This document shows, in pieces, positions 3,018 through 37,881 of a stretch of 64,000 nucleotides of DNA. The DNA is taken from assembly GCA_964016885.1 (NCBI GenBank), contig OZ024742.1:322214001-322278000 (forward strand). Reading direction: 5' to 3'. A model generated the notes under the pieces. That model saw nothing but the letters and a program-made list of their open reading frames with translations, was not told where the DNA came from and ran no database searches. The stretch comes from Eledone cirrhosa. Lineage: Eukaryota. Numbering within the stretch: the stretch's first letter is position 1; each line of letters begins with the position of its first letter. The translations under genes were made by a program, and so were the position numbers.

Positions 3018-3587
3018 GGGCCATTGAACGGTTGGGTCCATTGAACGGTAGGGCCCAACCGTTCAATGGACGAAGAAAATCTTGTGATCTCTGTGTTACG
3101 GAGGCATATTACATAACTCTATCACGACCTCTACCGATTAACGATAGAACGGAGGTAACCATTAGCTGTCAACATCGAAGGGCTAATTCCTTCGCCAATA
3201 GAGTTTTTGACTCAACTTAGTCATGTAGCCCCATTTCTACTTGTAGCTAATAAGTTAAATTGCTATGAACAACTCGATAATTATAAGTTACCTCCCCTAC
3301 ATTGTCTCTCAATTAAAAAATTTAAAAACTAGCACTTAACTATAAATACTCACAATCGCTAATCTCTCGAGAAGTTACTTCCCCTGAAACCACCCTCTAA
3401 TTAGTAAGGTAAATATGCCCTTTGGCAGCCATCTTGTTACCCATAGGCAGATCTCACACAATGCAGCCTCGACAGATGAATACTGCTTGATTATGGCTGA
3501 CAGCTGATACAACCAAGATACCATAGTAAAAACCAATATATGGAACATTATATTATGTAACATTATCCCATTATTTTAATTTATATA

Positions 3588-4483: not shown

Positions 4484-7405
4484 AGGATTAAAATACTGGA
4501 GCGTGTTGGAGTTAAACACCCTCTTCGTATTATAGAAATGACAGTAAAAGGTATAGCTCAATGTAATTAAACAGAGCCGAAGAATTATGAAAATAAAACA
4601 AAGAAGCCTTCAATACATCAAAAGTCTTTATTAGCCAACAATGTTTCGTCCTATTAAGGACTCATCAGGGCAATCAAAACCACAAGAAGCACTATCGGCC
4701 AATACAAGCCGAAAACTCCGAAGAATATGGAGTGTGCATACATTAAAGTATTGGAAGATTATGGGTAAAAATATATAATAAAAATCACTAAGGAGGTGGA
4801 TAACATTTTGAACCATATTACAAATATAGTCCAAAGCAAAAAAAACTAGAGCTAAACAAAGGTGGTTATATAGAGTGGGAATTATAGTACTATATGTAAT
4901 ACAATGTAATATAATATAATATACTTGTAACAATATTAAAATTAAAATTAAAATTAAAAGGCTCAATATACATATGTATATATGTACGCACACGTACGCA
5001 CATATACATATACATCAATACACATTTCCATCATTAACAGCACAAATTAAACCTTATTAAGAGTTTAAATATAAATAAGCATAATAGGAATAAAAATAAA
5101 AATAATACGTATATCTAATATACAGTATAACATGAAGTAATGAAATGATTAAAAGTAACACATATAATATATAATAAACTATATAATTATATAATATATA
5201 GTATAATATAATAGATAATCTCCGGTTAATTTACACAAACAATATAGATGTCACAATAATACTATAATAATAATATAATAATATATAATATATAATGGCA
5301 TGTAAGTTAACAAATCAATTCATATAGAGTTACAGAGTAGGTGAGAAAAATATAAATTGTACAATACCCAAAATTATGATGGTACAAAAATATAAACATC
5401 TTAAATGATATATAAAATTTAACATATCATAATGGTACATAAAATCATCGGTAAGTAATAAGGATCAATAGTACATTTACAAAGAGTTGAATAACAACTT
5501 CAATATAAAATAATGAACATAATATAATATATAATTACTTATAATTACAAGGTTGGTAAACAGACACATATGTGAATGAGTGAATAAGGGCCAGACAGAA
5601 AATACTATGCACAGTAGTATTAATAAATAAATAAATAAAATCAACCGGAAATTAAAAAACAAAAACAAAAGTATTTACTTAGGTCTCACATGCAGTTAAG
5701 TAAAAACTTAGGAAACAACCCAGATAAATGACTAGAAAACCCTATTTGATAAATTAATATTGAAAATATTTAAAATACCTAATAAGGCAATACAATATTA
5801 GCTATGGTTTAAGTAATCAAAATTCCTAAACATTAATATTTCACTATAAATATATATAGAAAGGAATGAAATATTCTACTATCATTTACATAACGATATC
5901 TAAAAAACTGACTTAAGCAGAATTATGGTAGGCTAATAGGGACAGAAAAAAAGAAATGTATGTAGGATACAAAGGAGCATAAAATCATAATCAATATACT
6001 GTATTATATAATAGAAAGGAGCATAAAAAAGGGGAGATTAAATATAATCATAATATATTTGAAGGGGTTAGCAATAAGTTTATATGTGCATGGGAGGAGG
6101 AGGAGGGAGTTATCCAAAGAAGAATCCAAATAAAATAAAATAAAATGAAATAAAATAATATAAAATATATAATCAGATATATACTCATAAGGTGTTAATA
6201 GTGAAAATTTAATGTGTAAGAAGATAGATATGGTATAGTAGCCAAAAGATTATGAGAGCTAGAATAAAAAGTTGTCAAAAACCAATGATAATAATGATGA
6301 TAATAATGGTGGTAAACAAAAAGAACCTAAACTAAAAAAATAAGTAATGGAATATATCAGCTAATGGATACAATTTACACTACTAGAACCTTTAGGTTTA
6401 TAATAAAAGTAAGAGAAATAGCGTGGGGGCAAGAAGAGAATATCTCAGACTTTCTATTAAGTAAGGATTCACTAGAGAAAATTATAGAGTGTGTCTCGAG
6501 GATACAGAGATTACAAAATTTAGTATGTGTAGAAAGGTTATTAGAGCGTGCTACTAAACGCCAATTAAGGGGAATTAGTTATAACTACACAAGCATAAAC
6601 GATTTTCTTAGAGAGGCAGTTACCGTTTAAAGGGCAGTTAGCACTCACTCTACAGTTACACTTCCGGGTGCTATTGATTGGCTGAAGTAGTGATGCATTA
6701 CACGTAGGATTACTATTAGATAAGGTCTGCTCTGGTGGTAAGGCATTTGCAGATCTGTTCAGACTAGTAGTATGTAGAGAGGAGTATCCATCCCTAATTT
6801 TCCTATTGTTAGTGCTAGCTAAATGAGAACTAATATTAGGGGTGGTAGAGAATGAAAGTTTAATAACATTTTTATTAAAGATACTATGGTATTTATGAGA
6901 AGGGGGGACATTTTTCTCTAAGATAGAAAAGAAAGACCTAGGGATATTAGTTAATACTTCCTGATTATATGGCGGGTTAAAATAAGTATTTAGTCTCCTT
7001 CTATTTTTATCCTTTCCGACTCTACGATTATGTAATATCCCATTATTAAGACTAGGGTTATTACAAGGATTAGTTAAAACCGCATTATTAGAATCAGCCG
7101 AAATTCCATTAAGTCTCTTTCTGATTCCACCTCTAGTAGATCTGCTGCTGTCGGGAATCCTATCAAAAGGATTAGGGCCAATAATAGGATCAGTAGAAAC
7201 AATATTATTAGAATTAGATCTAGCAAAAGCATCACCGATAAGTGAGCGCTCAGAGGGTTCAACTTGATTCCTAGAGGTATTATATTCCCTATTACGAGTC
7301 CGGTGGGTTAACTTATGGATGGGTTCAGATACACCTATGTAATTTCCACGATTATTATACTTCCTACTCCCATTCGTGGCCATGTTATAGGATATTATGT
7401 TATTA
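4482..7405 (-). pseudogene. 5'-truncated decayed PLE: linker, CxC-CPL-CL Zn motif, internally deleted GIY-YIG, long AT-rich 3' UTR with HHR
   Basis: ORF 6565-7536 has YFNPPYN..TNI..HKYHSIFN..IKLSFSTTPNI and CNC..CPLNGNCL..IVY. After a frameshift it reads WRLVARS..FCNLCILE..LLNRKSEIFSSCPH, homologous to the C-terminus of the 773-aa ORF. Confidence 0.85.
4634..4671 (-). ncRNA. Minimal type I hammerhead ribozyme
   Basis: GCC CUGAUGA GUCCU UAAU AGGAC GAAA CAUUG UU^GGC, followed directly by UAAUAAA. Confidence 0.85.
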
Positions 7406-7526
7406 TTATTATATATATATATATATATATACATATATATACATATACATATATATACATATACATATATATACATATATATATATATAGAAAGATTTGA
7501 ATGGATACAGTTTAGTTGAAAGGAAT

Positions 7527-7643
7527 TTATTGACACGTGTTTCTATAACAGTTACATAACCTAAAACAGCTATCTACAAACTTTTAGTTATGCAGACATT
7601 CAATATTTCAATGTTATTATTTACTGTCATTTCATCAGAATAA
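7527..7643 (-). ncRNA. Hammerhead ribozyme in 3' pLTR (extended branched stem II)
   Basis: UUAUU CUGAUGA A AUGACAGU...ACUGUUAU A GAAA CACGUG UC^AAUAA. Confidence 0.85.
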
Positions 7644-8187
7644 TATTACTGAGGACCTGTTTAGTTTTTATAGAGAATATTAGGAGGGAGGGGTGAAGTT
7701 GTTAGAAGAATAGTTGAAGGAGTGGTTTTTCGATAGCAGTGAGAATTCTTGGTGGCAGTGAGTAATTAGATTCCCATCTGTTGTTTTGACATTTTTTATA
7801 GAATATATTATTGGTTATTTTTCTAAATCTATAGAAGGATTAGAGATAGTAAAGATATGCGTGGTTGGTTTTGTGTTTGCACTTAATTAACATTCAGACT
7901 TAAATTTTTCTTTCAAGTGTACGTATCCTTTCACCCACGCATTCACACACAAATATATTTGCACACTTCTACAAAATACATATACTCACAATTCACATAT
8001 TCATACTTACATATATATACACATGCATGTATTCATGTACATACATACGCGCTCATGTGTATACGTTTTCATACTCAACTTATCTTTATATACACACGTA
8101 TAGACACACACATATATACATACATACTCTAGTCCATGTGTACACACATACACATACTTACACATCCATATACTCATATATACATAC

Positions 8188-8219
<32 letters not shown>

Positions 8220-8538
8220 ATATATACATACACATACATATACACACATATACATATATATATATATAAGCACTTTAATACATGAATACACTTACATCTA
8301 ACTATACACATCAAACATATATATATATTTACTTATTTATATACATTTTCACATATATATACATACTTATGGACGTTTTTAGACACATTCATTATCGCAT
8401 ATTTGTACCTATTCTCATCAGCATATCTTTTCATTATTAGTATGGTAATTTAAGGTTATTAATATATGTTGAGAAGAGATTGTTTTTATATTTTTCTAAC
8501 TAGATTAAGGTTTATATAGTTGGGGGATGTCCCTCTTT

Positions 8539-10860
8539 TTATGTAATATTCGGCTTGTAGTGGGAAAAAAGGGTTTTAGTTCTGTGACGGCAGAATAATG
8601 TTCGTTCAATTCTGTTATTCAGCAGTTTCTTCTTGTGTGTGATTATGTAATAAATCTCAAGATTACACAATTTGCAGAAATTTTGGCTCCTGGAAAAGCT
8701 TTGGGTTTTAGCTAATTTTTCCCATTTTAGGGTAAACTTTTGGTCGCTATCCCTGAGCGTCCAAGCTTTTTCTGCTAAAGTTGTTACATTTCTTTGGCTC
8801 TGGTGTTTTATTGAGTAAGAATGCCTATACAATCGAGATTTAAACAATGTTGCCGTTGATCCCACGTAATACCACTCGTTGCCTCCGGATTTAATGGTAC
8901 ACTTATAAATAATATTTTTTTCCAGGCAGTTATTGCCGAGGGGGCAGTTGTCAGGATAGGTGCAGTTACAGTTGTGTACGTTGGGTTTTCTCTGGAGTAG
9001 TATTGCGGACGAACTTAGGTGTGGTTTATTTATGTTCTGTAGTGTATTGTCTACTGTTTTTTTTGTGTTCTTTGTACTTAAGTTCTTAGTGTTTTCGTTT
9101 AACCTTCTAGTATTGATCTTTTTTATGTGTTGTTCAAGGTTTAACGCTGTAGAGTATGACAGTCTTATAGTGGTAGGGTTTAGGATTTTGTGGTATTTGT
9201 GTGATGTGGGAAAATGTCTTTTAATTATTTTAAAGAAGAGTACTGGTAAATTTGTACTAATGGAGCTATTGTATTCGGGGTTATACCATAAGTACTCTTT
9301 GCATCGCTTTCTATTAGTTTTGTTTGTTGGTTTACTGGTGTGCATACTATGGTAGTAAGTGTGGTTTGGTGTTGTGTTATTATATCTACCTATGTGGGAT
9401 TTATTTTGGGTGTTTTGATTGTTCCCATCTATGTACTCTATTTTGTTGAGGTAGCCTGCTTTACTAAGGGCGTTATCGTAGTACTCGGCGTGTTCCTTAA
9501 ATACTTGTATGTTAGAAGATAGACCCGAGATTCTAAGGGAAATATTTTTAGGGATAGATTTAATTATAGAGATGGGGTGGTTAGACCCAACATTTACGTA
9601 TTTGAGATTTTCGTTCAATTTATGAAACGGTTTAATCAAACCAGAGTTTAAATTGAGTGTGACATCCAGGAAGTTAACTACTTTAAGGTTGTATTCATAT
9701 GTTATAGTTAGTCCTATTTCGAGTAGTAGTTTTCTTATATCTTTGCGTAGTTTTTCTAGTTTTTGGTTATTAAGGTTTTTAGCTAGGAGGAGAACATCGT
9801 CGCGGTATATTCCGCCGTGGAGATTGCTGAATTTTTCCTGGAGTCTAAAGGCGATAAATAACCCCACAATATCAGTTATTTCCGCCGAATCGTTAGAGCC
9901 CATTGTTATGTCAAAGTTAGAGGGTCTATCTTTACGTACCCAATAACTGTTCTCAAATTTGACTATAGTTTTCCTAGCTTCTAATATAATCTTAATTTCA
10001 TCGTTTGTAAGGTCAGAGTTATCCTTAGCAAACTTAATGGCTCTATTCAAAGTTTCAGGTGATATCGATGAGTAATATTCATCGATATCAAACTGGATAA
10101 ACTTAGATTTATTCTTATTGCTAATGCTATTAAACCATCTTATTGCTTCTTGGGTCTTCCCCCAGAGTTTAATGTTAACCTTAGCCTTAATTTGGGGGAT
10201 GATTCTATCTAAGATATATTTGCTTATTTTACCTATATCTGATTTAGAGGGGCAGATTAATCTAATTTTAGGGTCATTATCAAAGTTTACCTTGTGGTCC
10301 TTAAGATTGAAGGTGGGTACCGCCGGTAAGAGTGGTCCTGTCCTATCTTCGATTCCGAGATTTTTCACTATTTCGCATGCCTCATCATTGATGTGCTTAA
10401 GGGTTACTTCACTCGTTTTTCTATATTTTTTATGTAATTCTTTTCGAATGAAGTTGTTGTATGTAGTGCAATCCATAGTGTACAGGTTTGATGTTTTGTC
10501 CGCTTTTACTACAATTCCTTTGGTGTTTTTAAGGTCGTCCAGTAGTTTTTTTATATCTTTCTGTAATTTGCTGTTGGTGTTGCGTCCTTTGAATTTAATT
10601 TTAAGGATTAAGTTCATAAGGTCCTGCTCAAATGCATCTAATAGTGGGTTGGTGGGTGGGTTTTTACAAGTCCTAAAACCGAATTTGTTGTTTACACCAC
10701 TTTCTAATGTTGAGTTCATACGGCTTCTATCATAGTGGAGCGTTTTCCACCTGACACGTCGAATGAATTCATTAGTTTTTTGAATCATGCTCAATAAATA
10801 TTCCTTTCTACCTTGGGTTGGTATGTTTTTGAGTGACATATCCAGGTAGTGTTTTTCCAT
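8539..10860 (-). CDS. PLE reverse transcriptase + C-terminal GIY-YIG endonuclease (773 aa, intact)
   Basis: KADK, K-x-HK..RLI, FDIDEYYSSI, MGS, YRDD, FLDV, CNC-CPL-CL, IIY..YVGST..R..H, C-x2-C-x2-E, LLN..CRH. Confidence 0.95.
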   Translation of the reverse strand: MEKHYLDMSLKNIPTQGRKEYLLSMIQKTNEFIRRVRWKTLHYDRSRMNSTLESGVNNKFGFRTCKNPPTNPLLDAFEQDLMNLILKIKFKGRNTNSKLQKDIKKLLDDLKNTKGIVVKADKTSNLYTMDCTTYNNFIRKELHKKYRKTSEVTLKHINDEACEIVKNLGIEDRTGPLLPAVPTFNLKDHKVNFDNDPKIRLICPSKSDIGKISKYILDRIIPQIKAKVNIKLWGKTQEAIRWFNSISNKNKSKFIQFDIDEYYSSISPETLNRAIKFAKDNSDLTNDEIKIILEARKTIVKFENSYWVRKDRPSNFDITMGSNDSAEITDIVGLFIAFRLQEKFSNLHGGIYRDDVLLLAKNLNNQKLEKLRKDIRKLLLEIGLTITYEYNLKVVNFLDVTLNLNSGLIKPFHKLNENLKYVNVGSNHPISIIKSIPKNISLRISGLSSNIQVFKEHAEYYDNALSKAGYLNKIEYIDGNNQNTQNKSHIGRYNNTTPNHTYYHSMHTSKPTNKTNRKRCKEYLWYNPEYNSSISTNLPVLFFKIIKRHFPTSHKYHKILNPTTIRLSYSTALNLEQHIKKINTRRLNENTKNLSTKNTKKTVDNTLQNINKPHLSSSAILLQRKPNVHNCNCTYPDNCPLGNNCLEKNIIYKCTIKSGGNEWYYVGSTATLFKSRLYRHSYSIKHQSQRNVTTLAEKAWTLRDSDQKFTLKWEKLAKTQSFSRSQNFCKLCNLEIYYIITHKKKLLNNRIERTLFCRHRTKTLFSHYKPNIT

Positions 10861-11064
10861 TGTTGTGGTTGCGTTTGCTGTGTGGGTTGCTCGACTTTAC
10901 AGGAGGTAAATATACAGTATTTTCCGTTGTGTTGTAATATAAATATTACACACAGTAGATTATCAGCTCACGTAGAGTTTGCTCGACGGTTCCAGTTATA
11001 GTTCCAAAAGTAATCCGGAGAAAAATAGAAAGATTTGAATGGATACAGTTTAGTTGAAAGGAAT

Positions 11065-11181
11065 TTATTGACACGTGTTTCTATAACAGTTACATAACCT
11101 AAAACAGCTATCTACAAACTTTTAGTTATGCAGACATTCAATATTTCAATGTTATTATTTACTGTCATTTCATCAGAATAA
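11065..11181 (-). ncRNA. Hammerhead ribozyme in 5' pLTR
   Basis: Identical to 7527-7643; spacing 3538 nt. Confidence 0.85.
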
Positions 11182-11191
11182 TATTACTGAG

Positions 11192-12952
11192 GACCACAAG
11201 GTAAACTTTGATAATGACCCTAAAATTAGATTAATCTGCCCCTCTAAATCAGATATAGGTAAAATAAGCAAATATATCTTAGATAGAATCATCCCCCAAA
11301 TTAAGGCTAAGGTTAACATTAAACTCTGGGGGAAGACCCAAGAAGCAATAAGATGGTTTAATAGCATTAGCAATAAGAATAAATCTAAGTTTATCCAGTT
11401 TGATATCGATGAATATTACTCATCGATATCACCTGAAACTTTGAATAGAGCCATTAAGTTTGCTAAGGATAACTCTGACCTTACAAACGATGAAATTAAG
11501 ATTATATTAGAAGCTAGGAAAACTATAGTCAAATTTGAGAACAGTTATTGGGTACGTAAAGATAGACCCTCTAACTTTGACATAACAATGGGCTCTAACG
11601 ATTCGGCGGAAATAACTGATATTGTGGGGTTATTTATCGCCTTTAGACTCCAGGAAAAATTCAGCAATCTCCACGGCGGAATATACCGCGACGATGTTCT
11701 CCTCCTAGCTAAAAACCTTAATAACCAAAAACTAGAAAAACTACGCAAAGATATAAGAAAACTACTACTCGAAATAGGACTAACTATAACATATGAATAC
11801 AACCTTAAAGTAGTTAACTTCCTGGATGTCACACTCAATTTAAACTCTGGTTTGATTAAACCGTTTCATAAATTGAACGAAAATCTCAAATACGTAAATG
11901 TTGGGTCTAACCACCCCATCTCTATAATTAAATCTATCCCTAAAAATATTTCCCTTAGAATCTCGGGTCTATCTTCTAACATACAAGTATTTAAGGAACA
12001 CGCCGAGTACTACGATAACTCCCTTAGTAAAGCAGGCTACCTCAACAAAATAGAGTACATAGATGGGAACAATCAAAACACCCAAAATAAATCCCACATA
12101 GGTAGATATAATAACACAACACCAAACCACACTTACTACCATAGTATGCACACCAGTAAACCAACAAACAAAACTAATAGAAAGCGATGCAAAGAGTACT
12201 TATGGTATAACCCCGAATACAATAGCTCCATTAGTACAAATTTACCAGTACTCTTCTTTAAAATAATTAAAAGACATTTTCCCACATCACACAAATACCA
12301 CAAAATCCTAAACCCTACCACTATAAGACTGTCATACTCTACAGCGTTAAATCTTGAACAACACATAAAAAAGATCAATACTAGAAGGTTAAACGAAAAC
12401 ACTAAGAACTTAAGTACAAAGAACACAAAAAAAACAGTAGACAATACACTACAGAACATAAATAAACCACACCTAAGTTCGTCCGCAATACTACTCCAGA
12501 GAAAACCCAACGTACACAACTGTAACTGCACCTATCCTGACAACTGCCCCCTCGGCAATAACTGCCTGAAAAAAAATATTATTTATAAGTGTACCATTAA
12601 ATCCGGAGGCAACGAGTGGTATTACGTGGGATCAACGGCAACATCGTTTAAATCTCGATTGTATAGGCATTCTTACTCAATAAAACACCAGAGCCAAAGA
12701 AATGTAACAACTTTAGCAGAAAAAGCTTGGACGCTCAGGGATAGCGACCAAAAGTTTACCCTAAAATGGGAAAAATTAGCTAAAACCCAAAGCTTTTCCA
12801 GGAGCCAAAATTTCTGCAAATTGTGTAATCTTGAGATTTATTACATAATCACACACAAGAAGAAACTGCTGAATAACAGAATTGAACGAACATTATTCTG
12901 CCGTCACAGAACTAAAACCCTTTTTTCCCACTACAAGCCGAATATTACATAA
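11192..12952 (+). pseudogene. Truncated RT-GIY-YIG ORF lacking the N-terminal ~187 aa
   Basis: Only 3 aa differences visible versus the full ORF over the listed 503 aa (A>S, E>K, L>S). Confidence 0.9.
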
Positions 12953-13271
12953 AAAGAGGGACATCCCCCAACTATATAAACCTTAATCTAGTTAGAAAAA
13001 TATAAAAACAATCTCTTCTCAACATATATTAATAACCTTAAATTACCATACTAATAATGAAAAGATATGCTGATGAGAATAGGTACAAATATGCGATAAT
13101 GAATGTGTCTAAAAACGTCCATAAGTATGTATATATATGTGAAAATGTATATAAATAAGTAAATATATATATATGTTTGATGTGTATAGTTAGATGTAAG
13201 TGTATTCATGTATTAAAGTGCTTATATATATATATATATGTATATGTGTGTATATGTATGTGTATGTATAT

Positions 13272-13303
<32 letters not shown>

Positions 13304-13847
13304 GTATGTATATATGAGTATATGGATGTGTAAGTATGTGTATGTGTGTACACATGGACTAGAGTATGTATGTATATATGTGTGTGTCTATACGTGTGTA
13401 TATAAAGATAAGTTGAGTATGAAAACGTATACACATGAGCGCGTATGTATGTACATGAATACATGCATGTGTATATATATGTAAGTATGAATATGTGAAT
13501 TGTGAGTATATGTATTTTGTAGAAGTGTGCAAATATATTTGTGTGTGAATGCGTGGGTGAAAGGATACGTACACTTGAAAGAAAAATTTAAGTCTGAATG
13601 TTAATTAAGTGCAAACACAAAACCAACCACGCATATCTTTACTATCTCTAATCCTTCTATAGATTTAGAAAAATAACCAATAATATATTCTATAAAAAAT
13701 GTCAAAACAACAGATGGGAATCTAATTACTCACTGCCACCAAGAATTCTCACTGCTATCGAAAAACCACTCCTTCAACTATTCTTCTAACAACTTCACCC
13801 CTCCCTGCTAATATTCTTTATAAAAACTAAACAGGTCCTCAGTAATA

Positions 13848-13964
13848 TTATTCTGATGAAATGACAGTAAATAATAACATTGAAATATTGAATGTCTGCA
13901 TAACTAAAAGTTTGTAGATAGCTGTTTTAGGTTATGTAACTGTTATAGAAACACGTGTCAATAA
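13848..13964 (+). ncRNA. Hammerhead ribozyme in pLTR of inverted copy
   Basis: Same motif as 7527-7643, on the plus strand. Confidence 0.85.
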
Positions 13965-14111
13965 ATTCCTTTCAACTAAACTGTATCCATTCAAATCTTT
14001 CTATTTTTCTCCGGATTACTTTTGGAACTATAACTGGAACCGTCGAGCAAACTCTACGTGAGCTGATAATCTACTATGTGTAATATTTATATTACAACAC
14101 AACGGAAAATA

Positions 14112-14152
<41 letters not shown>

Positions 14153-14166
14153 TATACATATACATG

Positions 14167-14297
<131 letters not shown>

Positions 14298-14304
14298 GTA
14301 TACG

Positions 14305-14336
<32 letters not shown>

Positions 14337-14416
14337 ATTATTTATATATATATATATATATATGTAAGTATGTATGTATACGTTCATACATATATGTATA
14401 CAGACGTACAGTAGCA

Positions 14417-14468
<52 letters not shown>

Positions 14469-14619
14469 CAGGTACACATATATATATATGTACGTATCAG
14501 TTTAGCGGACGTTTATTATAACGCCCGCTTTGTCCGTTTGTAAACAAGCGGACAGCCTGATTTATGCCGTACGGTGTTAAGGCAACCACGTCACCTTTTT
14601 GTTCAACACTGATACAGGA

Positions 14620-14662
14620 ACGATGTACTAGTTTCAAGCTTCTTAGCTATCATCAGCACCGT
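14620..14662 (-). ncRNA. Minimal hammerhead ribozyme
   Basis: ACGGUG CUGAUGA U AGCU AAGA AGCU U GAAA CUAG UA^CAUCGU. Confidence 0.85.
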
Positions 14663-14700
14663 ATACCCTTCTGCCAATTTCGTTTCATTATATTACAACT

Positions 14701-14999: not shown

Positions 15000-15965
15000 T
15001 ATATCAAAGGTAAATATTAAAGCAAGATTCTATAATCATTCTTCTTCATTTAAATATCCACTTAAACCAGCACCGCTCTCTCAGAGCTTATTTGGTCCTT
15101 AAAAGACAAAAACATTAATTACGAAATTTCTTGGCGTAAAATCTACAACGCAACTCCATACTCCAATGCTTCCATATCTAGTGTTTGTAATTTATGTCTA
15201 GTTGAAAAATTTACCATTAACTCGAATTTCAACTCTATAATAAATAGAAGAAGAGATTTATTTGGTCTTTGCATCATAAATCCTTCCAGACCTTTCACAA
15301 AGTATATAGCTAATGTCTTATAACTTTTTCCACGAATAACGGTTAATTTTTTACACATATTTTTTTATATATATATTCTTTTTACATATATATATTTTTT
15401 TATATATTCTTTTACACATATTTCGTTATATTCTACAATGTATTAATTTAGTTTTCTCAGCATATTTTAAGCCTTTGACCTTTTTTCAATAGCCTTAAAT
15501 TTTCGCTCAAACCTTCGTAGATTTTGTAAACAAACTATGACGTCATGTGTTTTTTCAACGTTTATAAATCATTCTAGCAATTTCCTTTATTTACTTGTTG
15601 ATATTAAATAATAATTAAATAGTATACCCCACATATATGGACTTTTAATTAAAAAAAATTAATTTTGACATAGATAGACTATTTTTATTTTTTTATTTTA
15701 TTTTAATTTATTTTATATAAAAATCTTTTTTTATACTTATTTTAATTTAATTTTATTTTATTTTATTAATACATTTTTACACTTCTTAATCCAAGTTTTA
15801 GCATTTAAACCCAATATAAAATAATATACCCAGTTTCTATATTTTAGACCTCTAATATTTGAATACCATCTATAATATTCGCATATACACCTCATCAATT
15901 TACTTTTTAACCGTTATCTACAGCTGTTTTCATTTTGACAGCGTTCCTGATCAAAAGTCTCTCTC

Positions 15966-16024: not shown

Positions 16025-16597
16025 TTCTTTCTTTCTCTCTCTCTCTTTCTTTCTCTCTCTTCCTTCTTTCTCTCTCTTCCTTCTTTTTTCCTCTCCTCAC
16101 TTTCTTTTTCCTTTTTCTCCTTCTTCTTTTCTTTTTTTCTATTTTGCTATCTTTTTCTTACTATTATATTTTCTGTCATATGTAGGTTTTGCACTTTCCT
16201 GTAAACAAGTGTTTTTAGGCCTCATATCATGTTACCTTATTTTATCTGATGAGAACACAATTTTTGTCCCAGCATGATCTTGTTTTCGAAATGCGCATAA
16301 TAAAATATATGGAACTTCTTTAACCAACTTTTAATTTCTTCTTTAATATATACTCCAGTTGTACCAACTGTTGAGTGCTACTTATCTGATATATGCATAG
16401 TTTTATTGTTCTACAATATTACTCACCTTCTACATATATATATATTTTATTTCATTGTTTTAACTCATATCATGACTCTGTTTTCCTTTTAATGTTTTAT
16501 TGTTTTCTGAGATTTATCTTAACCTACAACATTTTCAACATATGGATTACATTGAGTTCTTCATACAGAATTGACCCCACAACTTACAGTGGATACC

Positions 16598-16657: not shown

Positions 16658-17585
16658 AACCAGTAAGACCCCGACAGCTGAGCTCAAGCCGTTTCGACGG
16701 CTAATTCTGGACTAAATGAAAATTTATCCTGGTATTTAAATAGCCGATCTTCTCAAGGGGTAATTCCATATATGGTCAAAGTGATTGTCAAAAATCAGTA
16801 GTAATTCTGAGGTTGCAAATTAGTAGGGGAGATGGTGGCTAAACCTGCCAGTAGGAGAAAGAGGGGAGGGGGTGGAGTAGACCCAATCAAGCGTTGGTAG
16901 TGCCAGCTACAGCTGGGCATGAGGTCAAAGAAGATACAGGGGAGGAGGAGGGGGAGGAAGTCGGAACGGTAGGTAGAACAATGGGGGGTAGAAATAGGAA
17001 AGAAAAAATACTGAGAGTGAAGAAAAGCAAATAAGTGTAAAGAAAAAAGTAAAGTAAATTAAATTCTACGACCTAGGTGTCAGGCTATTGTTAGGCGAGA
17101 ATAAAATAAAGAAAGAAAGAAAGAAGTAAATAAATAAATAAATAAATAAATAAGGAAATAAGTAAAAGAACTAGGTGGGACGGAATAGGCAAGGACCCTT
17201 TTAAGAGGTATAAGTACGTAAATGATACGGTGACGGGTCAACAAAAGAGGCCAAAATACTAAAGAGACTACCACGAAATAAACAATAAAGGTTTCCATCC
17301 CGGGCCAGCAACGGCCCAGTGCAGCAAAGTGAACTTGTACGAGATAGTAATTCTGAGTCCCAAACCGATATTGAGGCAACTGCCAGAAACCAAGACAGCT
17401 TTTGGTGAAACTGTTTCGCGACCTCAGCGAAGAGAATCACCAACTCCTTCGTTAATCAGTGGGTGCTATTTTTAGTAGTATACGTTTATGAGATACGCTA
17501 GGTTCTGATGCCATGTGCGTTATTTTATATACACACACTATTCAGTCTTCTGAGATACTTAGAAGTGAAGACTTTACTAATTTTA

Positions 17586-17663
17586 CACCCACTGATGAGT
17601 GAAGGAGTTAGTGATTCTCTTCGCTGAGGTTGCGAAACAGTTTCACCAAAAGCTCTCTGGGTG
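17586..17663 (+). ncRNA. Hammerhead with conventional (non-palindromic) stem III; degenerate inverted copy at 17388-17465
   Basis: CACCCA CUGAUGA GUGA...UUGC GAAA CAGUUU cacca AAAGCUC UC^UGGGUG. The inverted copy restores the stem III C-G pair but has core CUGAUUA. Confidence 0.7.
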
Positions 17664-17862
17664 TCTGGCAGTTGCCCCAATATCGGTTTGTATTTATTTT
17701 CTTGATTTATTCTTTTAAATTGAGTCTGGCAAACACTATTGTTCATAGTTGGTATTTTTTCACCCTAGCGAATCTGGTCCCCTACGAGTTGAACACATAT
17801 ATGTATATATCTGTGTTTATCTCTCTTTTATTTTCAATTATATATATATATATATATATATA

Positions 17863-20174: not shown

Positions 20175-20822
20175 TGAGTTGAGATGGAGGGTCTGTGGTT
20201 TTTCTCACATCTGGTTGGTCTCTGAATGTTACTTGTTTTATATGGAAAAAGTGGCTCGAAATGCCAGGTTTTTCGAGAAGTAATTTGATTGGTTTGTCAA
20301 TAATTATAATAAATTTCGCGCCAGTTCGCGTTACAATAGTTCTTCAAATAAGGGGGGGGGGGTTGTCACAGGTTGTTTTTTTCATATATGAGTGTTTGAA
20401 TTTCTTTTTACTTGAAAAAAGGGGCTCACGAAGGCTTTTTTTTGGTTGGTTATAAATGAAATTATGGCTGTCACGTGAACAAGTTTTCATTAAATTTTCG
20501 TGCCCTTATTTGGAAATCCATTCTGTAGCCTTTATATATTCCATGTATAAATGGAATAGAATGAAACAAAATTTCATTTCATTTCTCACTCTTAGTACGG
20601 CACGTTCCTGTGTCAGTGTTGAACAAAAAGGTGACGTGGTTGCCTAAACACTGAACGGCGTAATTCGGGCTGTTTGTTTGTTTACAAACAAACAAACCGA
20701 GCATTATAATAAATTTTCGGTAAACCGATACATGCATATATATATGTGTGCATGTATGTATATATATACATACTACTGTACGTCTGTATACATATATGTA
20801 TGTACGTATACATACATACATA

Positions 20823-21660: not shown

Positions 21661-22219
21661 GTATTTGGGAGCAAAGATTGGGAATACGGAAGATGATGTG
21701 GTTGAGAGGAAGAGCAAGGCCTGGGCGGCGTGTCACAGCTTGAGATCGGTGTGGAAGTCGGACCTTCGTAGAGATCTGAAAATCCGCCTCTTCATTGCTG
21801 TAGTGGAGTCTGTGCTGCTGTATGGGTCTGAGACTTGGACACTGACCAAGAGACTCACTCAGATGGTGGATGGGTGCTACACGAGAATGCTGAGGATGGC
21901 TCTGAACATTAATCAGTATACACTGAGGATGAAAAACTCAGAGCTGTATGGGAGCCTCCCAAAAGTAAGCTCAAAAGTGACACAGAGGAGACTGAGGTTA
22001 GCTGGACATGCTCACCGACATCCAGAGTTGACGTTGCACTCAGTGCTCCTTTGGGAGCTCCTACATGGACACACTAGAAGAGGAAGGCCAAGGTTAACTT
22101 ATGTTGATGCCCTAAGGACAGACACTGGTATGTTGGAACGCAGGACATGGCGGCGATAATGAGGGACAGAGACCGCTGGAGAGAACTCGTTCATGGATCT
22201 CGGGAATTTTACCCGCCTT

Positions 22220-22221
<2 letters not shown>
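21661..22221 (+). pseudogene. RTE-clade LINE 3' fragment
   Basis: YLG..KAWAA..VWKS..KIRLF..VESVLLYGSETW..RMLR..RLRLAGH..RGRPRLTYVD. Confidence 0.85.
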
Positions 22222-22274
<53 letters not shown>

Positions 22275-22297
<23 letters not shown>

Positions 22298-24078
22298 CTT
22301 AAGGAACATATGTTCAAATTTAATGGAAAAACATATGCCCAAGAGGAGGGACCAGCCATTGGTGTTAGCATTTCAGGTGACATAGCTAACCTATTCATGG
22401 TATGGTGGGACAATAGACTCAAACTTAAACTTAAAGAACAATTAGAAGACAGCAACCTCTTAACCCTGATAATGTACTCCCGCTACGTTGATGATATAAA
22501 CATCGTAGTAAAAACACCCCCACAAGAGAACAGTCAGGAATTAGAGAAAAACACCATGGAAAGCATCCAGCAAATAGCTAACTCCATCCACCAGAGTATT
22601 AGAGTTACTATAGACTACCCAAGCAAACACCCCAACCATCGGTTATCTGTACTAGACACAGAGCTCTGGTTAGATACCATTAATAACAAAAAACAAATTC
22701 CCCATTCCCATTATCCCAAACCATGACTTCCAAATATCTGATCCACCGAAACTCAGCTGTTTCGGACCATACCAAAATCAACATACTGATTGCGGATTTG
22801 GTACGGGTGATGAGAAACGTGTCCCGCATGTGCAACCCCAAAGAACTAGAGAGACACATACAACACTTCATCCACCGTATGCAGTTTTCTGGTTACAATC
22901 AGAGAGATAAAATCAGAGTATATAGAGGAGCCAGAACCAAATGGGAAAAAATGGTAAATAATGATACAAATAGGACCTTCCCCTTGTATAGGAGCAAATT
23001 TTGGAATAGAATAGAAAGAACTAGGAATAAGGTTAATAGAATAAACTCATGGTATGATAGCAATAAATACCAGAGTGTAATGTTCATCGATACAACCCCT
23101 AGAGGTGAATTAGCTTACCAATTTTCAAGGGCCCTAGATAAACATAAACTCAATATTAAGATAGTAGAAAGACCAGGTACCTCCATAAAAACACTTATTT
23201 GCAATACATACCCTTTTCAAAGACCTCCCTGTATAGATAAGAAATGTATAATCTGTAAACTAAGCCCCCATATTAACTGTAAAACTAGAAATGTAGTATA
23301 TAGGATAAGATGTACTGAAGGACAATGTAGAGATAAGAATAGAGTGTACATAGGTGAGACAGCTCGTAGTATAGGAGAACGGATAAATGAACACTGGCGA
23401 GAACTTCAAGATAGTAAAGAATCATCTGTAATCCACCAACATGCTAAAATAGAACATAAGGGTAAATTAGAGAACATAGAAATAAAAATAGAATCTACAC
23501 ACAGAAAAGACGCAATGTTTAGACAAATCACAGAGGCAATAAACATAAATGAATTACAACCAAAATTAAATAGAAAACATGAGTGGAACAGCAACATCAC
23601 AACTTACAATTAAGGACAAAATGAACACACACACACACATAGAACAAACAACCAACCAGTAACATGTAAATAAACAAATAAATAAACGAATATAAACACA
23701 CACAGACACCCGGATGTAACACATGCGCAAACTAAGCACACAACACACACACAAAAACAAGATGGCGTAGGACAGAACAAAGGAGAGGCACAAAAACAAA
23801 GAAAAGAATCCCCAGTCACTGAAGAGGTCACAGAATGTGTGACGAAAGAACTTTGACAATATATGAACAATCGTCTAGTTGTGGAACCAACCAACCAACC
23901 AACCGGAAATTTATAAATTCCTAAATTTATAAATTTAATTTATAATAAATAGAAGTGGAAGCAACTGGTGTGTGTGTTTCTTATTGGCAACATGACCCTC
24001 CCAAAGCATAACAATATCGGTTTCAACACACGTTTTCAGATAAAGAATCTTGCTAAACAAATTCAGAAACGAAATAAA
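22275..24078 (+). pseudogene. 5'-truncated PLE of a second clade (Neptune-like): RT C-half + GIY-YIG with one frameshift (~22723), pLTR with HHR
   Basis: FKFNGKTYAQEEGPAIG, RYVDD, VLDTEL, KPMTS..SA..K, C-x4-C-x2-C..C, VVY..YIGET.R...R..EH, ITEA, LNRKHEW. Confidence 0.9.
23815..23857 (+). ncRNA. Minimal hammerhead in PLE pLTR
   Basis: GUCA CUGAAGA G GUCACA GAAUG UGUGAC GAAA GAAC UU^UGAC; identical copy at 29558-29600 (-). Confidence 0.7.
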
Positions 24079-24098: not shown

Positions 24099-24623
<525 letters not shown>

Positions 24624-24931
24624 TGTGTGAGTGTGTATATATGTAAACAAACAAACAGCCTGAGCATTATAATAAATGTTCGGGCTGTTTGTTTGTTTAC
24701 GTATATACATACTACTGTACCTCTGTATACATATATGTATGTACGTATACATTTAAGTAAGTGCCGTACTAAGAGTGAGAAATGAAATTTCGTTTCATTC
24801 TATTCCATTTATCGTTTTCGGTGTGCCCGGCCGACTGAACTCACTCGATATGCAAATTAGGCTGCTCAGCCGTTAATATGCATAAGGAAAGTATATACTT
24901 TCAGACGTTCAACCATCTGGCAGGAAGGTAT

Positions 24932-24974
24932 ACAATGCTGACGATAGCTAATAAGCTTGAAACTAGTATATCGT
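24932..24974 (+). ncRNA. Minimal hammerhead (same family as 14620)
   Basis: ACAAUG CUGACGA U AGCU AAUA AGCU U GAAA CUAG UA^UAUCGU. Confidence 0.8.
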
Positions 24975-25750
24975 TCCTGTGTCAGTGTTGAACAAAAAGG
25001 TGACGTGGTTGCCTAAACAATGTACGGCGTAACTTGGGCTGTTTGTTTGTTTACAAACAAACAAACCGAGCATTATAATAAATGTTCGGTAAACCGATAC
25101 GGGCATATATATATGTGTGCATGTATGTATATATATACATATAACTGTACGTCTGTATACATATATGTATGTACGTATACATACATACATACTTATATAT
25201 ATATATATATATATATATATTGGTAAATGGAAAAGTAAATGCTGACAAATTGTTCACAGTGAAAGATAGTTTAATTAGGAATAAGTGAGAATTAGTAATA
25301 GTATTGGTTAGTATTCAGTTTTGGTTTTAAGTTTTACCGGTTGCGAATTTCTAATGCTTTTCAAAAATAATTTTGAGATAGAGCGTCCGTGATGTTTGCT
25401 CTGATCTGATTAGTTTTGGCAATTCTACCTGTTTTTATGTTAAAAAAGTGGCTCCAGCGGTATTAAAATAAGTTTTGCGCCAATTCGTGTTGCAAAAATT
25501 CTTGTGGTCAAAACAATTTTGATTGGTCGGTAGAGGTCATGTGAATGTTAAAAATTGATTTTGCGCCGCCAAATGTAGGTTTGTGTCGGCTGATTGAGAA
25601 GTCACTGAGATATAAGTCTTTCAAAACAAATATGTGTGTGTATGTGTGTAGTAGTAGTAGTAGTAGTAAAGAGGTTCGTTGTTGTGATAATGGTCAGCAG
25701 GGATGTGTGTGCGAACCGCAACCTGTTGACAGTTCAAATGCCTATTAAGA

Positions 25751-25963: not shown

Positions 25964-26587
25964 AACATGTCTATAGAATCACCAGATAAAATATATACCA
26001 TTTCCTCTCCCAATTAGCATAATTAACCATATAAAAAATCGATTAGACCAAGCTATAAGAATAAAGGCTTCTATGAAGAAATCTCCGAAAAATAACCGAA
26101 AGCAGCCCTTCGCGCCGGCTGCGACACGATTCTTAGCCATTTTTTAATGTATTCTTGGCGCGATCACTTTTGAAAATTTATTGTCTAAATTTGAGCTAAC
26201 TTCCTGAAGAGTCCGGTGCTCTAGACGCCCGATGCTATCGGATATCTTAAAATGCGGACGAAACCATGGTAGAGGTAACTAAATATGTTCACTTTTCTCC
26301 TAGTTTATTTTACACCTAACTCTGTTTAGTTGACTATATCTGGGCGATTTGTACACGCTGTCGAAATACTCGATAAATGGTGCGTCGCAGCCGGCGCGAA
26401 GGGCTGCTTTCGGTTATTTGTCGGCGATTTCTTCATAGAAGCCTTTATTGGTCTAATCGATTTTTTATATGGTTAATTATGCTAGTTGGGAGAGGAAATG
26501 GTATATATTTTATCATGTTTTATGATATATAGCTCTGATTATTTAATTTATTAACTCTTCATTGAGCCACAAAGTGACCCGTTGCAA

Positions 26588-29344: not shown

Positions 29345-30492
29345 TATTTCGTTTCTGAATTTGTTTAGCAAGATTCTTTATCTGAAAACATGTGTTGAAA
29401 CCGATATTGTTATACTTTGGGAGGGTCATGTTGCCAATAAGAAACACACGCACCAGTTGCTTCCACTTCAATTTATTATAATAAATTTATAAATTTAGGA
29501 ATTTATAAATTTCCGGTTAGTTGGTTGGTTCCACAACCAGATGGTTGTTTATATAATGTCAAAGTTCTTTCGTCACACATTCTGTGACCTCTTCAGTGAC
29601 TGGGGATTCTTTTCTTTGTTTTTTGTGCCTCTCCTTTGTTCTGTCCTACGCCATCTTGTTTTTGTGTGTGTGTTGTGTGCTTAGTTTGCGCATGTGTTAC
29701 ATCCGGGTGTCTGTGTGTGTTTATCGTTTATTTATTTGTTTATTTACATGTTACTGGTTGGTTGTTTGTTCTATGTGTGTGTGTTCATTTTGTCCTTAAT
29801 TGTAAGTTGTGATGTTGCTGTTCCACTCATGTTTTCTATTTAATTTTGGTTGTAATTCATTTATGTTTATTGCCTCTGTGATTTGACTGAACATTGCGTC
29901 TTTTCTGTGTGTAGATTCTATTTTTATTTCTATGTTCTCTAATTTACCCTTATGTTCTATTTTAGCATATTGGTAGAGTACAGATGATTCTTTACTATCT
30001 TGAAGGTCTCGCCAGTGTTCATTTATCCGTTCCCCTATACTACGAGCTGTCTCACCTATGTACACTATATTTTTATCTCTACATTGTCCTTCAGTACATC
30101 TTATGCTATATACTACATTTCTAGTTTTACAGTTAATATGGGGGCTTAATTTACAGATTATACATTTGTTATCTATACAGGGAGGTCTTTGAAAAGGGTA
30201 TGTCTTGCTAATAAGTGTTTTTACGGAGGTACCTGGTCTTTCTACTATCTTAATATTGAGTTTATGTTTATCTAGGGCCCTTCTAAATTTGTAAGCTAAT
30301 TCACCTCTAGGGGTTGTATCGATGAGCATTACACTCTGGTATTTATTGCTATCATACCATGAGTTTATTCTATTAGCCTTATTCCTAGTTCTTTCTATTC
30401 TATTCCAAAATTTGCTCCTATACAAGGGGCAGGTCCCATTTATGTCATTATTTACCATTTTTTTCCCATTTGGTTCTGGCTCCTCTATACAC
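29345..30492 (-). pseudogene. 5'-truncated copy of the Neptune-like PLE (GIY-YIG + pLTR/HHR)
   Basis: ORF 29796-30497 is highly similar to 22723-23613; same 3' TA junction. Confidence 0.9.
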
Positions 30493-30830
30493 ACCACCTA
30501 TCGCCGTCGGGACCCCTGGCGTCCTCAGACCCCGTACTGCCGAGCTCCTCTGTAAAATCTGAAAGTCAACAACCTGTCTGAGGAAAGAGGCCCGCGAGGT
30601 GGGGTAGTTGTAGCTGGTGTCGTTAGCCATTGTCCGCGGAAATGTCTTTGCAATTTTGTCCGTGGGGTGCAACCAAAAACACTGCCCCGCCCTAGGCATA
30701 GAGATCATTATCCTCACCCCTTCCCCTCCCTTTCTTCTAAGGTCTATTAATCCCTGCTTTTCTCCTCCTTTTCTTCTCATTTATTGGCTTTTATAGTCCT
30801 TTCCTCTACTTTCCTATACAGCCAGATCTG

Positions 30831-32262: not shown

Positions 32263-32299
32263 TTGTTATTGTTGCTGTTGTTGCTATTGTTGTTGGTGT

Positions 32300-32690
32300 T
32301 GTTGATGGTGTTGTTGTTGGTGGTGTCGGTGTCGCTGTTATTGTTGATGGTGTTGTTTTTATTGTTGTTGTTGCTGTTACTAGTGGCAATGCTGTTGGTG
32401 GTGTTGTTGTTGGTGGTGTCGGTGTCGCTGTTATTGTTGATGGTGTTGTTTTTATTGTTGTTGTTGCTGTTACTAGTGGCAATGCTGTTGGTGGTGTTGT
32501 TGTTGGTGGTGTCGGTGTCGCTGTTATTGTTGATGGTGTTGTTTTTATTGTTGTTGTTGCTGTTACTAGTGGCAATGCTGTTGATGGTGTTGTTGTTGGT
32601 GGTGTCGGTGTCGCTGTTATTGTTGATGGTGTTGTTTTTATTGTTGTTGTTGCTGTTACTAGTGGCAATGCTGTTGATGGTGTTGTTGTT
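32300..32690. repeat. 93-bp minisatellite (~4 units) built from GTT/GGT triplets
   Basis: GGTGTCGGTGTCGCTG recurs every 93 nt. Confidence 0.85.
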
Positions 32691-33097
32691 GTTCTTGCAA
32701 TTGTTGTTGAAGGCGATGTTGTTATTATCATTGATGCTGTTGTTGATGTCATGACTGTTGTTGATGTTGTTGCTGCTGCTGCTATTGTTGTTGTTGGGGT
32801 TGTCATGTGTCGGCTGTCACCAAAAATATGAGACAAGAGCCACCTGGTGATAGCAATATGTACCATGTCACACTATTTTCTAAGTAATTCACTGACTGAG
32901 ATACATCCCCATTATAAATGGCCGACTGTCATAAGTTACATATGAGCTGCTTTAAAACCTCTCGTCCCTGTCTCTATCTCCACAATTCATGTCATTATAT
33001 CTTCTTCTTCCTGCAAATATTGGCCATGTTCCTCTCATACTACAATTCCCATCTCTCTGTTTCTCACCTTCACTCATACACTCTCTCTCTCTTTCTC

Positions 33098-34154: not shown

Positions 34155-37100
34155 GATAGCAACTAACAGTGCTGCGATCGAATGTGGCTTTTTAGCCCAG
34201 CCAATGATCCAAAATGTCTTGCACAGAGTCGGCAACCAAAACATTTACTGGGAATAGTCGGCTGTGGTTGGAGTTCGTGTACTTTTGCATGTCGCTTGAG
34301 TCCTCCTGCTGATTTACATTCTCTACCACATGTTTGGCAAGCATGATGAGTAGCATCTCCAACAGCAGCCTGGTAGTCAACCACTGGTCTTACTTTATGA
34401 CTGCGAAGATGACTTTCGAGTCCAGCTTTGCTTAGGCAGAGTCTCGCACAGACGCTGCATGCCAGAAACATAGGAGGACCCTCGCCGTCTGGAAGTGCAA
34501 CAGCAATACCCTTCCTCACGTCCCGCTTTACTTTCTCGTGTGCGATTCGAGATGCCTCAAAGGCAACTTTTCCCTCATATACAGTCTTTCTCCATTTATT
34601 ACGATCAGCAGCAATATTTTCCCATGTATCAGCAGAGATGTTAGCGTCTTTCAGAGAGGCCTTCAAGGAATCCTTATACCTCTTTTTTGGTTTATGTGGC
34701 GGTCGTTTTCCTTTAACCAACTCTCCATAGAAGAGTTGTTTTGGTATTCTAGAATCCTTCATCCTGGCAAGGTGACCACTCCAACGGAGTCGCTGCTTAA
34801 GCACAAGAGCTTCTATACTGTCACACATAGAGCTTTCCAAAATCTCGACATCACTGATGTGGTCCCTCCAGCGAACGCCATGTATCCGTCTGAGACACAT
34901 CTGATGGAAACGCTCCAATTGCTCAAGGTGGCGTCGATATGTGACCCAGGTCTCGCAGGCATAAAGAAGACAAGAGAGTACACATGCCCTGTACACCTTT
35001 ACCTTTGTCCTCCTGCATATGTCTCGCCGACCCCAGAGTCGCCTTTCTAGCTTTCCGAAAGCATCACTTGCTTTCCTAATCCTAAGTGAGATTTCACCGT
35101 CAAGGTTGCCGTATCGATTGACAGTGCTTCCCAGGTAGACAAACTGATCAACCACTCCAAGTCGCTTGCCATACACATAGATGTTTGGTTCAGTGTACTG
35201 CCTACCAGGTGCAGGTTGGTACATGACGACGGTTTTCTTGAGACTGACAGTCAAACCCAGGGCAGTGCAAGCGTCAGAAAATACATTCAAAATGTGCTGC
35301 ATATCACTCTCTGTGTGCGCTACAAGATCGCAATCATCTGCATACAAGAGGTCTCTTATGACTGATGCAAATACTTTTGTCTTCGCAGCAAAGCGCCTGA
35401 TGTTAAATATGCTGCCTGAGGTTCGATATCGGATGTAAACACCATGCTCGCAATTCCTGAATGCAACACAGAAAACCATTGCAAAGTATATGGCAAACAG
35501 GGTCGGTGCTGGAATATCCCCCTGTTTCACTCCATTTTTTACTGACATAGGCTCCGACATGTTACCTCCGACATTAACCCAAGCCTTCATGTCGTCATGG
35601 AAAGACCTAACTAAAGCAAGGAACTTATCAGGGCAACCAAGTTTCTGGAGAACCTTCCATAATGCATCTCTGTTGACAGTATCGAAAGCCTTTGTCAGAT
35701 CGACAAAAACCTGATACAGATCCAAGCCCTGTTCAATGCACTTCTCCTGGAGCTGTCTAGCTGAGAAGATCATATCAGTAGTGCCGCGTCCAACACGAAA
35801 ACCAGATTGACTTTCAGGAAGGACACAATCTGCAATGTGTGTCAGCAGACGGTCCAGAAGCACCCTACATAAAACTTTCCCCACGACAGAAAGCAATGAT
35901 ATACCTCTGTAGTTCCCACAATCATTCCTGTTACCCTTTCCCTTGTACAAGACCACCATTACTGCATCTCTCCAGTCCTCAGGCACGGATTCATTAGCCC
36001 ATATCCTTCCAAACAGAGAGTGAAGATGTTGCAGGAGTCTCTCACCACCATATTGTAGGAGCTCAGCATGTATGCCATCCATACCTGGAGATCTTCCACT
36101 GTTCAGCTTCGAAATAGCCACTGCAACCTCCACAAGTGTCGGAGGCTCTGCGAGAGCTACTTTCACAGGACTTTCCGGAATGAGATTGAGGAAATCTTCA
36201 CTGACGACAGACGGCTGATTCAAAAGATCATCAAAGTGCTCCCGCCACCTTCGTAGAATTCCCTGTGAGTCACGAAGAAGTTCTTTGCCATACCTGCTGC
36301 GAATCGGTGTCACCAGAGAAGAAGACGGTCCATAAACCTCACGCAAGAGACTGTACAACAGCTTTGTGTTATTGCAATCAGACGCAGTTTGTATCTCACC
36401 AGCCTTCTCACTCCACCACTGATCCTTCATCTGAGAAAGACTCCGCCTAACACGTGATTTTACATCCCTGAGCTCCTCATGCAACGTATTCCTCTCCTGT
36501 GGTCTTGCCGTCAAGTAGCGTGACAGAGCGCGCCTCTTATCAGCCAACAAGTCATCTATATGCACATCTTTCTCATTAAACCAGTCCTGATGTTTTCTCT
36601 GCACCAATCCCAGAACACGTCTGCCTACATCATAAACCGACTTTTTAAGGGTCGGCCAATCCTCACCAAGATCTGCAGCCTGCATCTCTTCTTCCAATGT
36701 CCTCTTCACATTTTTATCCTTAAGACGAGCAGCATTCAATCTTTTGGGCAGGGTAACACCAGGAGCCCGGATTTTACGTTTGGTGATTAGATTCACTTTT
36801 GCGCGTACCAGGCGGTGGTCCGTCCAGCACTCAGCTCCACGAAGAACACGAACACACCGCACATCCTGTCTGTCACGCATCCTGACTAGGACGTAGTCCA
36901 AAAGATGCCATTCCTTAGATGCAGGATGCATCCATGTGGTCTTGAATTTGTTCTTTTGTTGGAACATGGTGTTGGTAACACACAGATCCAGCTCCTCACA
37001 CATCTGCAGCAAGAGCATACCATTGCTGTTACACTTTCCCACCCCATGCCTTCCGATTACATTCCATGTGTTAAAATCCCTACCCACTCTAGCATTAAAG

Positions 37101-37716: not shown

Positions 37717-37751
<35 letters not shown>

Positions 37752-37881
37752 CATACATACATACATATATACATACATACATACATATATACATAAAAAA
37801 ATACATACATACATACATATATACATACATACATATATACATACATACATACATATATACATACATACATACATATATACA

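Follow-up and report, generated by a model that had tools for sequence, protein, structure and literature searches.

Penelope-like elements (PLEs) typically lie in a genome with an inverted, 5′-truncated copy beside an upstream pseudo-long terminal repeat (pLTR) and a tail of 30–40 bp at one end (Craig et al. 2021, PMC8557442). The same layout is described in Adineta (Arkhipova et al. 2013, PMC3846280) and listed for the Hydra-clade Repbase family Penelope-13_HM (PMC8557442). We describe a PLE insertion at positions 7487–14119 of a 64,000-nt stretch of Eledone cirrhosa DNA (assembly GCA_964016885.1, contig OZ024742.1, 322,214,001–322,278,000, forward strand; hereafter the window, to which all coordinates refer), in which an element is joined head-to-head to a truncated, inverted copy of itself between (TA)n tracts. 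We hold, with moderate confidence, that this is a recent insertion of a Hydra-clade element into (TA)n, and that its head-to-head form arose in one event in which both nicked strands primed reverse transcription.

Poseidon of Anolis carolinensis (PAc; Frangieh et al. 2024, PMC11167929) resembles the locus in that two RNA start sites downstream of its hammerhead ribozyme bracket the tail. The PAc protein nicks and extends both target strands and can use uncleaved RNA as template, ribozyme cleavage being dispensable for insertion (PMC11167929); we infer that the locus is alike in these respects. PAc belongs to a different clade, and its start sites fall within the open reading frame (ORF) and share no homology with the cut DNA (PMC11167929), whereas at the locus they are located upstream of the ATG, with 3–5 nt of overlap with the (TA)n target. 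The Penelopes of Drosophila virilis and Adineta vaga share with the locus the layout of direct and inverted pLTRs and the one-sided tail, but have a Penelope/Poseidon-type endonuclease with CCHH (PMC3681739, PMC3846280); inverted Penelope copies can give small interfering RNA (siRNA), and small RNA was shown there (PMC3681739). Thus published work already includes the inverted truncated copy, the tail on one side only, (TA)n targets, dimer-type hammerheads and the production of siRNA by inverted copies. An earlier reading of the window from its letters alone (the original prediction) had made the head-to-head layout its highlight; the layout is the typical PLE arrangement in published work, and the locus is an ordinary example of it.

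Structure and clade of the inverted insertion

Self-comparison of the window yielded two inverted pairs. The first comprises arms of 2815 nt each (7487–10301 and 11190–14004), separated by an 888-nt spacer and differing by six substitutions and two 2-nt indels, the indels lying in an internal microsatellite; the second pair (10910–11195 and 13834–14119) differs by one substitution. Furthermore, 7487–7657 is an exact direct copy of 11025–11195. The left element lies on the minus strand and consists, in order, of an upstream pLTR (11195–10910, including the 115-nt tail region 10910–11024), 49 nt leading to the ATG, a single ORF (10860–8539), an 881-nt 3′ untranslated region (UTR; 8538–7658) with an internal TA/CA microsatellite at about 8144–8268, and a 3′ pLTR reduced to its first 171 of 286 nt (7657–7487); the unit length is 3538 nt. 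On the plus strand, the inverted copy of 2930 nt starts in codon 187 of the ORF (11190–12952; the frame is open, and its first Met, at 11588, lies past the first catalytic Asp) and continues through its 3′ UTR (12953–13833) to a whole 286-nt 3′ pLTR (13834–14119), which ends in the 115-nt tail (14005–14119). The two copies meet at 11190–11195 in a 6-nt microhomology, AGGACC, which matches both the antisense pLTR (7652) and the sense ORF (10296–10301); an overlap of at least 6 nt occurred in 0.24% of 200,000 random sense/antisense joins of the element. The outer ends of both arms enter (TA)n, on the left a degenerate tract at 7410–7489 and on the right a tract at 14115–14489.

These results bear out the original prediction of a full minus-strand element joined at this hexamer to a nearly identical inverted copy of 2.9 kb. 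The order pLTR-ORF-pLTR given for the element holds as well, with the reservation that the left pLTR is partial, and the span of 7488–14116 had to be corrected to ends at 7487–7490 and 14114–14119, which the overlap with TA blurs.

The ORF encodes 773 amino acids (aa) comprising a reverse transcriptase (RT), a CxCx5C linker and, C-terminally, a GIY-YIG endonuclease, with CxxC and CxH. Conservation was read from an alignment of this protein with the best 120 of 299 homologs (BLASTP, 8000 scored candidates), which are 31–43% identical to it. D258, YRDD (352–355), C631, C633, C639, C645, Y652, Y665, G667, R676 and H680 are kept, as are C729, C732, E735, N748, C757 and H759; IIY (650–652) and YVG (665–667) are the GIY-YIG motifs. 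At their conserved columns, YRDD, IIY/YVG, R676, H680, E735 and N748 each agree with 111–120 of the 120 homologs, in keeping with the earlier description of a young, open-framed PLE whose RT and endonuclease residues are intact. P529E and L337A deviate from near-invariant columns; decay of the ORF through these two changes was dismissed and they were taken as family traits, since no sampled run (see below) lists a difference at either.

The features diagnostic of the Hydra clade are RWK, DKT, CxCX5C, CxxC and CxH motifs, the lack of a CCHH finger, and (TA)n targets (PMC8557442). We assign the element to this clade because its ORF carries every sequence motif given for it: a single ORF places the RT before a C-terminal GIY-YIG endonuclease, RWK stands near the N-terminus (37–39), DKT replaces DKG (121–123), and the linker (C631-C633-C639), CxxC (C729-C732) and CxH (C757-H759) are present. 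No CCHH finger is found in the 773-aa ORF, which has one cysteine between IIY and YVG where two are required, nor is there an IFD insertion, the distance from D258 to M320 being 62 residues against 63 in Hydra-1_Obim of Octopus bimaculoides (counted by eye). Insertion into (TA)n, another property of the clade that the original prediction had proposed for the element, is seen at both flanks and at loose ends in other samples. A Naiad/Chlamys PLE, expected to have an N-terminal endonuclease, DKA, CxC and an IFD, was rejected on account of the C-terminal endonuclease and DKT; Penelope/Poseidon, Neptune and Nematis were likewise rejected, as the ORF has neither their CCHH finger in the endonuclease nor DKG.

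From these motifs we conclude that the element is a Hydra-clade PLE, apparently of a new family in textbook arrangement, which the octopus repeat library behind PMC13282606 may already hold. Hydra-1_Obim appears to be a different family, as its N-terminus and hammerhead differ by eye (PMC8557442). The 3538-nt unit exceeds the length of generally less than 3 kb given for the clade, which is a tendency and not a criterion, and the 115-nt tail is longer than the 30–40 nt of the PLEs described by Craig et al. (PMC8557442). In a quick tree of 52 of the 121 alignment rows, outside which the published reference families lie, the protein grouped with P0001, P0002 and an Argonauta hians protein (Shimodaira–Hasegawa-like approximate likelihood ratio test, 99), a neighbour that by itself would make an octopod host probable. 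Among its Atlas neighbours, some of the members bear GIY-YIG and RVT_1. Pfam gave no family for three window proteins and six unrelated, weak families among 18 alignment members, and a sequence search of solved structures returned one chance match (E 0.37).

Directly to the left, adjoining the young element's left tract, is an older Hydra-type element (4484–7409, minus strand) that is 5′-truncated and frame-broken, with 36% identity over 156 aa, a 3′ region of 1.9 kb, a minimal hammerhead (4668–4637) and (TA)n flanks. Directly to the right, between TA tracts, lies a short fragment (14493–14676) with a hammerhead motif at 14656–14626 (minus strand), repeated at 20603–20731 and 24918–25101. Decayed pieces at 15072–15317 and 3047–3199 (both plus strand) are similar to the C-terminal part of the Hydra endonuclease (tblastn E 2e-4 and 6e-5).

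Termini and origin of the head-to-head form

Of the 23 listed sequencing runs, 17 contain part of the stretch, seven of these half or more, and no RNA run appears among those listed. Four (X1, X2, X3 and X6; four organism codes, three studies) were compared over 10302–13100; ten with small shares (0.05–0.27) and three same-study runs at 0.00 were left aside. The ordinary, un-inverted ORF joint (10302 to 11190/11192, on opposite strands) is present in all four, the ordinary continuation from pLTR to UTR at 11195 in X1, X2 and X3, and long contigs of X1, X2 and X6 are 98.7–99.6% identical to the locus; it follows that the family is young and that the inversion belongs to this insertion. With an arm divergence of 0.24%, we estimate that the insertion is about 0.3 million years (My) old, if the arms were born identical and the octopus clock applies (Jukes–Cantor distance 0.09 = 25 My; PMC13282606). 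Across the four organism codes, identity within the family is about 99% and summed contig depths range from single digits to thousands, which may reflect either close relatives or a recent horizontal transfer; the pLTR reaches a far greater depth than the ORF in X3.

Two observations on the termini favour priming from both nicked strands. First, among the pieces listed, loose (TA)n ends occur at 10910 in X1 and at 11025 in X2, exactly the two termini of the locus, and one X6 piece begins exactly at 10910. Second, the element ends overlap the TA tract by 3 nt (left arm) and 5 nt (right arm) at the locus, and the 3′ ends of relatives do likewise in five of five informative cases (2, 5, 5, 4 and 2 nt; sum 18 against 4.5 expected, P ~1e-4). 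Informative here means that the tract comes with a second, continuing pLTR copy; 25 TA tracts were found in 19 of 77 metagenome loci, and 20 were dropped for want of such a copy.

Furthermore, the predicted hammerhead cleavage site lies at pLTR position 126, and the arms end at positions 171 and 286. Both arms thus start downstream of the cleavage site, by 45 and 160 nt, and run through it, the left arm twice; therefore, a linear excised monomer, such as the unit-length RNA of the original prediction, cannot have been the template; an uncleaved multimer or a circle can have been.

We propose that the endonuclease nicks both strands of (TA)n, and that downstream of the hammerhead each 3′-TA end pairs with a UA run over 3–5 nt. 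The paired ends would then prime cDNA synthesis, each at one of two preferred start sites that lie 115 nt from each other, on an RNA that would be an uncleaved multimer or a religated circle. One cDNA would reach 3709 nt, beyond one unit, and the other 2930 nt; their 3′ ends would anneal at AGGACC/GGTCCT, followed by fill-in. L1 twin priming reportedly also uses two primers from one target site, with cDNAs joined by microhomology into an inverted product; there, the inverted part is said to be the 5′ neighbour of the direct part, unlike the locus, where both arms begin at the element's 3′ end.

Several points weigh against this proposal. Only five of the 25 TA tracts are informative, and L022, one of those filtered out, lacks an ungapped overlap on its 14-nt anchor; a target-site duplication is unreadable in (TA)n; and the Anolis element primes without homology (PMC11167929). 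No contig among the pieces listed for X1, X2, X3 and X6 bridges the head-to-head junction, and these runs may be other species. Finally, the arms differ by seven substitutions, of which, polarised by the sampled runs, six are derived on the plus arm, A464S among them, and one, S672L, on the minus arm and hence on the full copy (P = 0.125 for the split), which fits fold-back synthesis or two separate events as well. Editing of the template from A to I was rejected as their source, none of the seven being A-to-G or T-to-C in the derived direction.

The alternative that survives best, which we regard as possible though unlikely, is that a single cDNA (7487–11195) folded back, annealing its AGGACC end to GGTCCT 888 nt upstream, copied itself, gained the 115-nt tail by a switch of template from the 3′ pLTR to the upstream one and joined the target, a version of the self-priming model for rotifer Penelope. 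The geometry permits this, and the excess of derived changes on the plus arm is what a second-pass copy would lead one to expect, although a split of 6:1 falls short of significance. The proposal of self-priming was based on head-to-head junctions that are palindromic (PMC3846280), and a small insertion at 39246–39448 has a perfect 29-bp palindromic centre; the junction here, however, is not palindromic, and 14005–14119 would require an extra template switch. Two start sites and extension of both strands, moreover, have been seen in vitro for another PLE (PMC11167929).

Two independent, opposite insertions into one (TA)n tract, joined later by a microhomology-mediated deletion, would also account for arms that differ at seven sites. 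The tract is a hot spot, with the older Hydra-type copy on its left and another PLE fragment on its right, and deletions of this kind are common in Penelope copies (PMC3846280). We nevertheless consider this origin improbable: no TA remnant is left at the junction, the arms share variants that are absent from the compared runs (10998/14031, 11878, 12748, 12951 and 7659/13832), and the same layout is typical across PLE clades (PMC8557442).

That the locus serves as the family's active master copy and also as a source of silencing double-stranded RNA (dsRNA), as originally suggested, is doubtful indeed. Its ORF is open and keeps every catalytic residue, a pLTR lies upstream, partial tandems are capable of activity (PMC3846280), and inverted Penelope copies yielded matching siRNAs in Drosophila (PMC3681739). 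Against this, S672L is private to this copy, being absent from long contigs of X1 and X2, and leucine falls outside the eight commonest states of that column in the 120 homologs; other near-identical copies with a complete ORF span exist (in X1, one 2622-nt contig spans the ORF with nine other letters in 1911 nt), and there is no sign that the locus seeded other copies. Furthermore, the arms diverge from the junction, so that the element's own sense transcript forms no hairpin, and dsRNA requires read-through from outside.

An assembly or library artefact (a fold-back read or a collapsed repeat) is very unlikely: long near-perfect inverted repeats are hard to assemble (PMC8557442) and the junction is unspanned in the pieces listed, but the arms differ at seven sites and two indels, the sequences flanking them are unrelated, 115 nt of the plus arm are missing from the left one, and both termini match real termini in other samples. 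Inverted duplication after insertion was ruled out, as the plus arm extends those 115 nt past the left arm.

How tandem and inverted PLE insertions arise and how microsatellites are found was named as an open question by those who described the Hydra clade, and we met no test of any Hydra-clade protein in the available literature on the clade. In this family, a young open ORF and a defined target come together with two exactly placed start sites, for which the pairing rule can be tested; the TA overlap at the termini, the 115-nt tail and a hammerhead with an 88-nt arm are modest additions that should ease a test of this question. A literature search, with most subscription papers outside it, found no paper on base-paired priming at microsatellite targets by PLEs.

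Hammerhead motifs with long stem II regions

The element and its inverted copy contain three identical hammerhead motifs of type I, at 13848–13964 on the plus strand (predicted cleavage after C at 13959) and at 11181–11065 and 7643–7527 on the minus strand (after C at 11070 and 7532), the latter two spaced 3538 nt apart. Each consists of a 5-bp stem I, CUGAUGA, an 88-nt stem II region between the core halves, which closes with an A-A mismatch, GAAA, a palindromic stem III (ACACGUGU) and GUC. The original prediction had the three identical motifs, their spacing and the palindrome right, but not their size, which is not canonical: the stem II region of Hydra-clade hammerheads listed by Craig et al. 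is about 9–23 nt (PMC8557442), and Rfam, at its gathering threshold, reported no family in the window, giving only microsatellite-driven miRNA matches at E up to 10.

No such motif arose in 30 dinucleotide shuffles of the region, and the stem II hairpin folds better than shuffles (z -4.5, 2/1000). For the entire 286-nt pLTR, folding does not surpass that of its shuffles (z -0.30), and no compensatory change in stem II could be demonstrated from variants of the sampled runs. In folding predictions, stems I and III of a lone RNA pair with a probability of at most 0.05 and the active monomer fold is 4.6 kcal/mol worse than the free one, whereas folding as a dimer gains 5.9 kcal/mol over two free RNAs (-54.3 vs -48.4 kcal/mol, with no penalty for the 3.4-kb spacer). 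The model thus favours the dimer-type hammerhead that had been suggested, for which cleavage would require either the help of protein or a dimer formed through the palindromic stem III. Dimer-type PLE hammerheads with a palindromic stem III and weak activity in vitro have been described, together with a circle hypothesis (PMC4209133).

We also scanned the relatives, allowing up to 150 nt between the core halves with short spacings preferred. Among the 56 of the 77 metagenome loci with at least 150 nt downstream, 32 contain a hammerhead, all with 10–25 nt between core halves. Three further plus-strand motifs in the window (16246–16299, 43259–43313 and 26204–26271) have stem II regions of 35, 36 and 49 nt, with complete stem I and palindromic stem III; long arms are therefore not unique to this PLE family in this host. 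Naiad cores lying 35–50 nt apart have been named 'half cores' (Craig et al., PMC8557442). Five short motifs from the window hammerheads had no match in the supplement of that paper, where line breaks could hide one, and our literature search, within the same bounds, met no paper on a hammerhead with extended stem II in retrotransposons.

The long-armed hammerhead suggests that descriptor searches undercount PLE ribozymes. We tentatively put forward a wider view in two parts: that in Hydra elements targeting (TA)n both nicked strands are primed through short TA pairing with two fixed sites on the RNA, which itself builds the head-to-head layout and the tail; and that the host lineage evolved working hammerheads with stem II arms of 35–88 nt that escape standard descriptors, in which case full ribozymes may be present in some 'half-core' or 'ribozyme-less' PLEs.

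Other repeats in the window

The insertion at 39246–39448 belongs to another PLE-like family and lies, head-to-head and palindromic with unequal arms, between two (TA)n tracts, a miniature of the same layout; its hammerhead cores are at 39291–39313 (minus strand) and 39320–39342 (plus strand), and a related single copy lies at about 55027–55150. Short palindromic insertions, most of them beside (TA)n, are also found at 17361–17690, 24111–24367, 39082–39201, 42869–43010 and 52042–52136.

Yet another PLE family, with a YSRYVDD RT and a YIG endonuclease, is represented by two copies that are 94–96% identical (22163–24076, plus strand; 29345–30497, minus strand); they lie tail-to-tail about 5 kb apart and carry one hammerhead each (23819 and 29596). 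An open frame of 1324 codons at 34163–38137 (minus strand) encodes a long interspersed nuclear element with AP-endonuclease, RT and C-terminal C2H2 fingers, which we take to be RTE-like. There are also two tandem arrays, a 93-bp repeat at 32263–32796 with an open Thr-rich frame, possibly a mucin-like exon, and, at 63291–64000, a 44-bp minisatellite with which the window ends.

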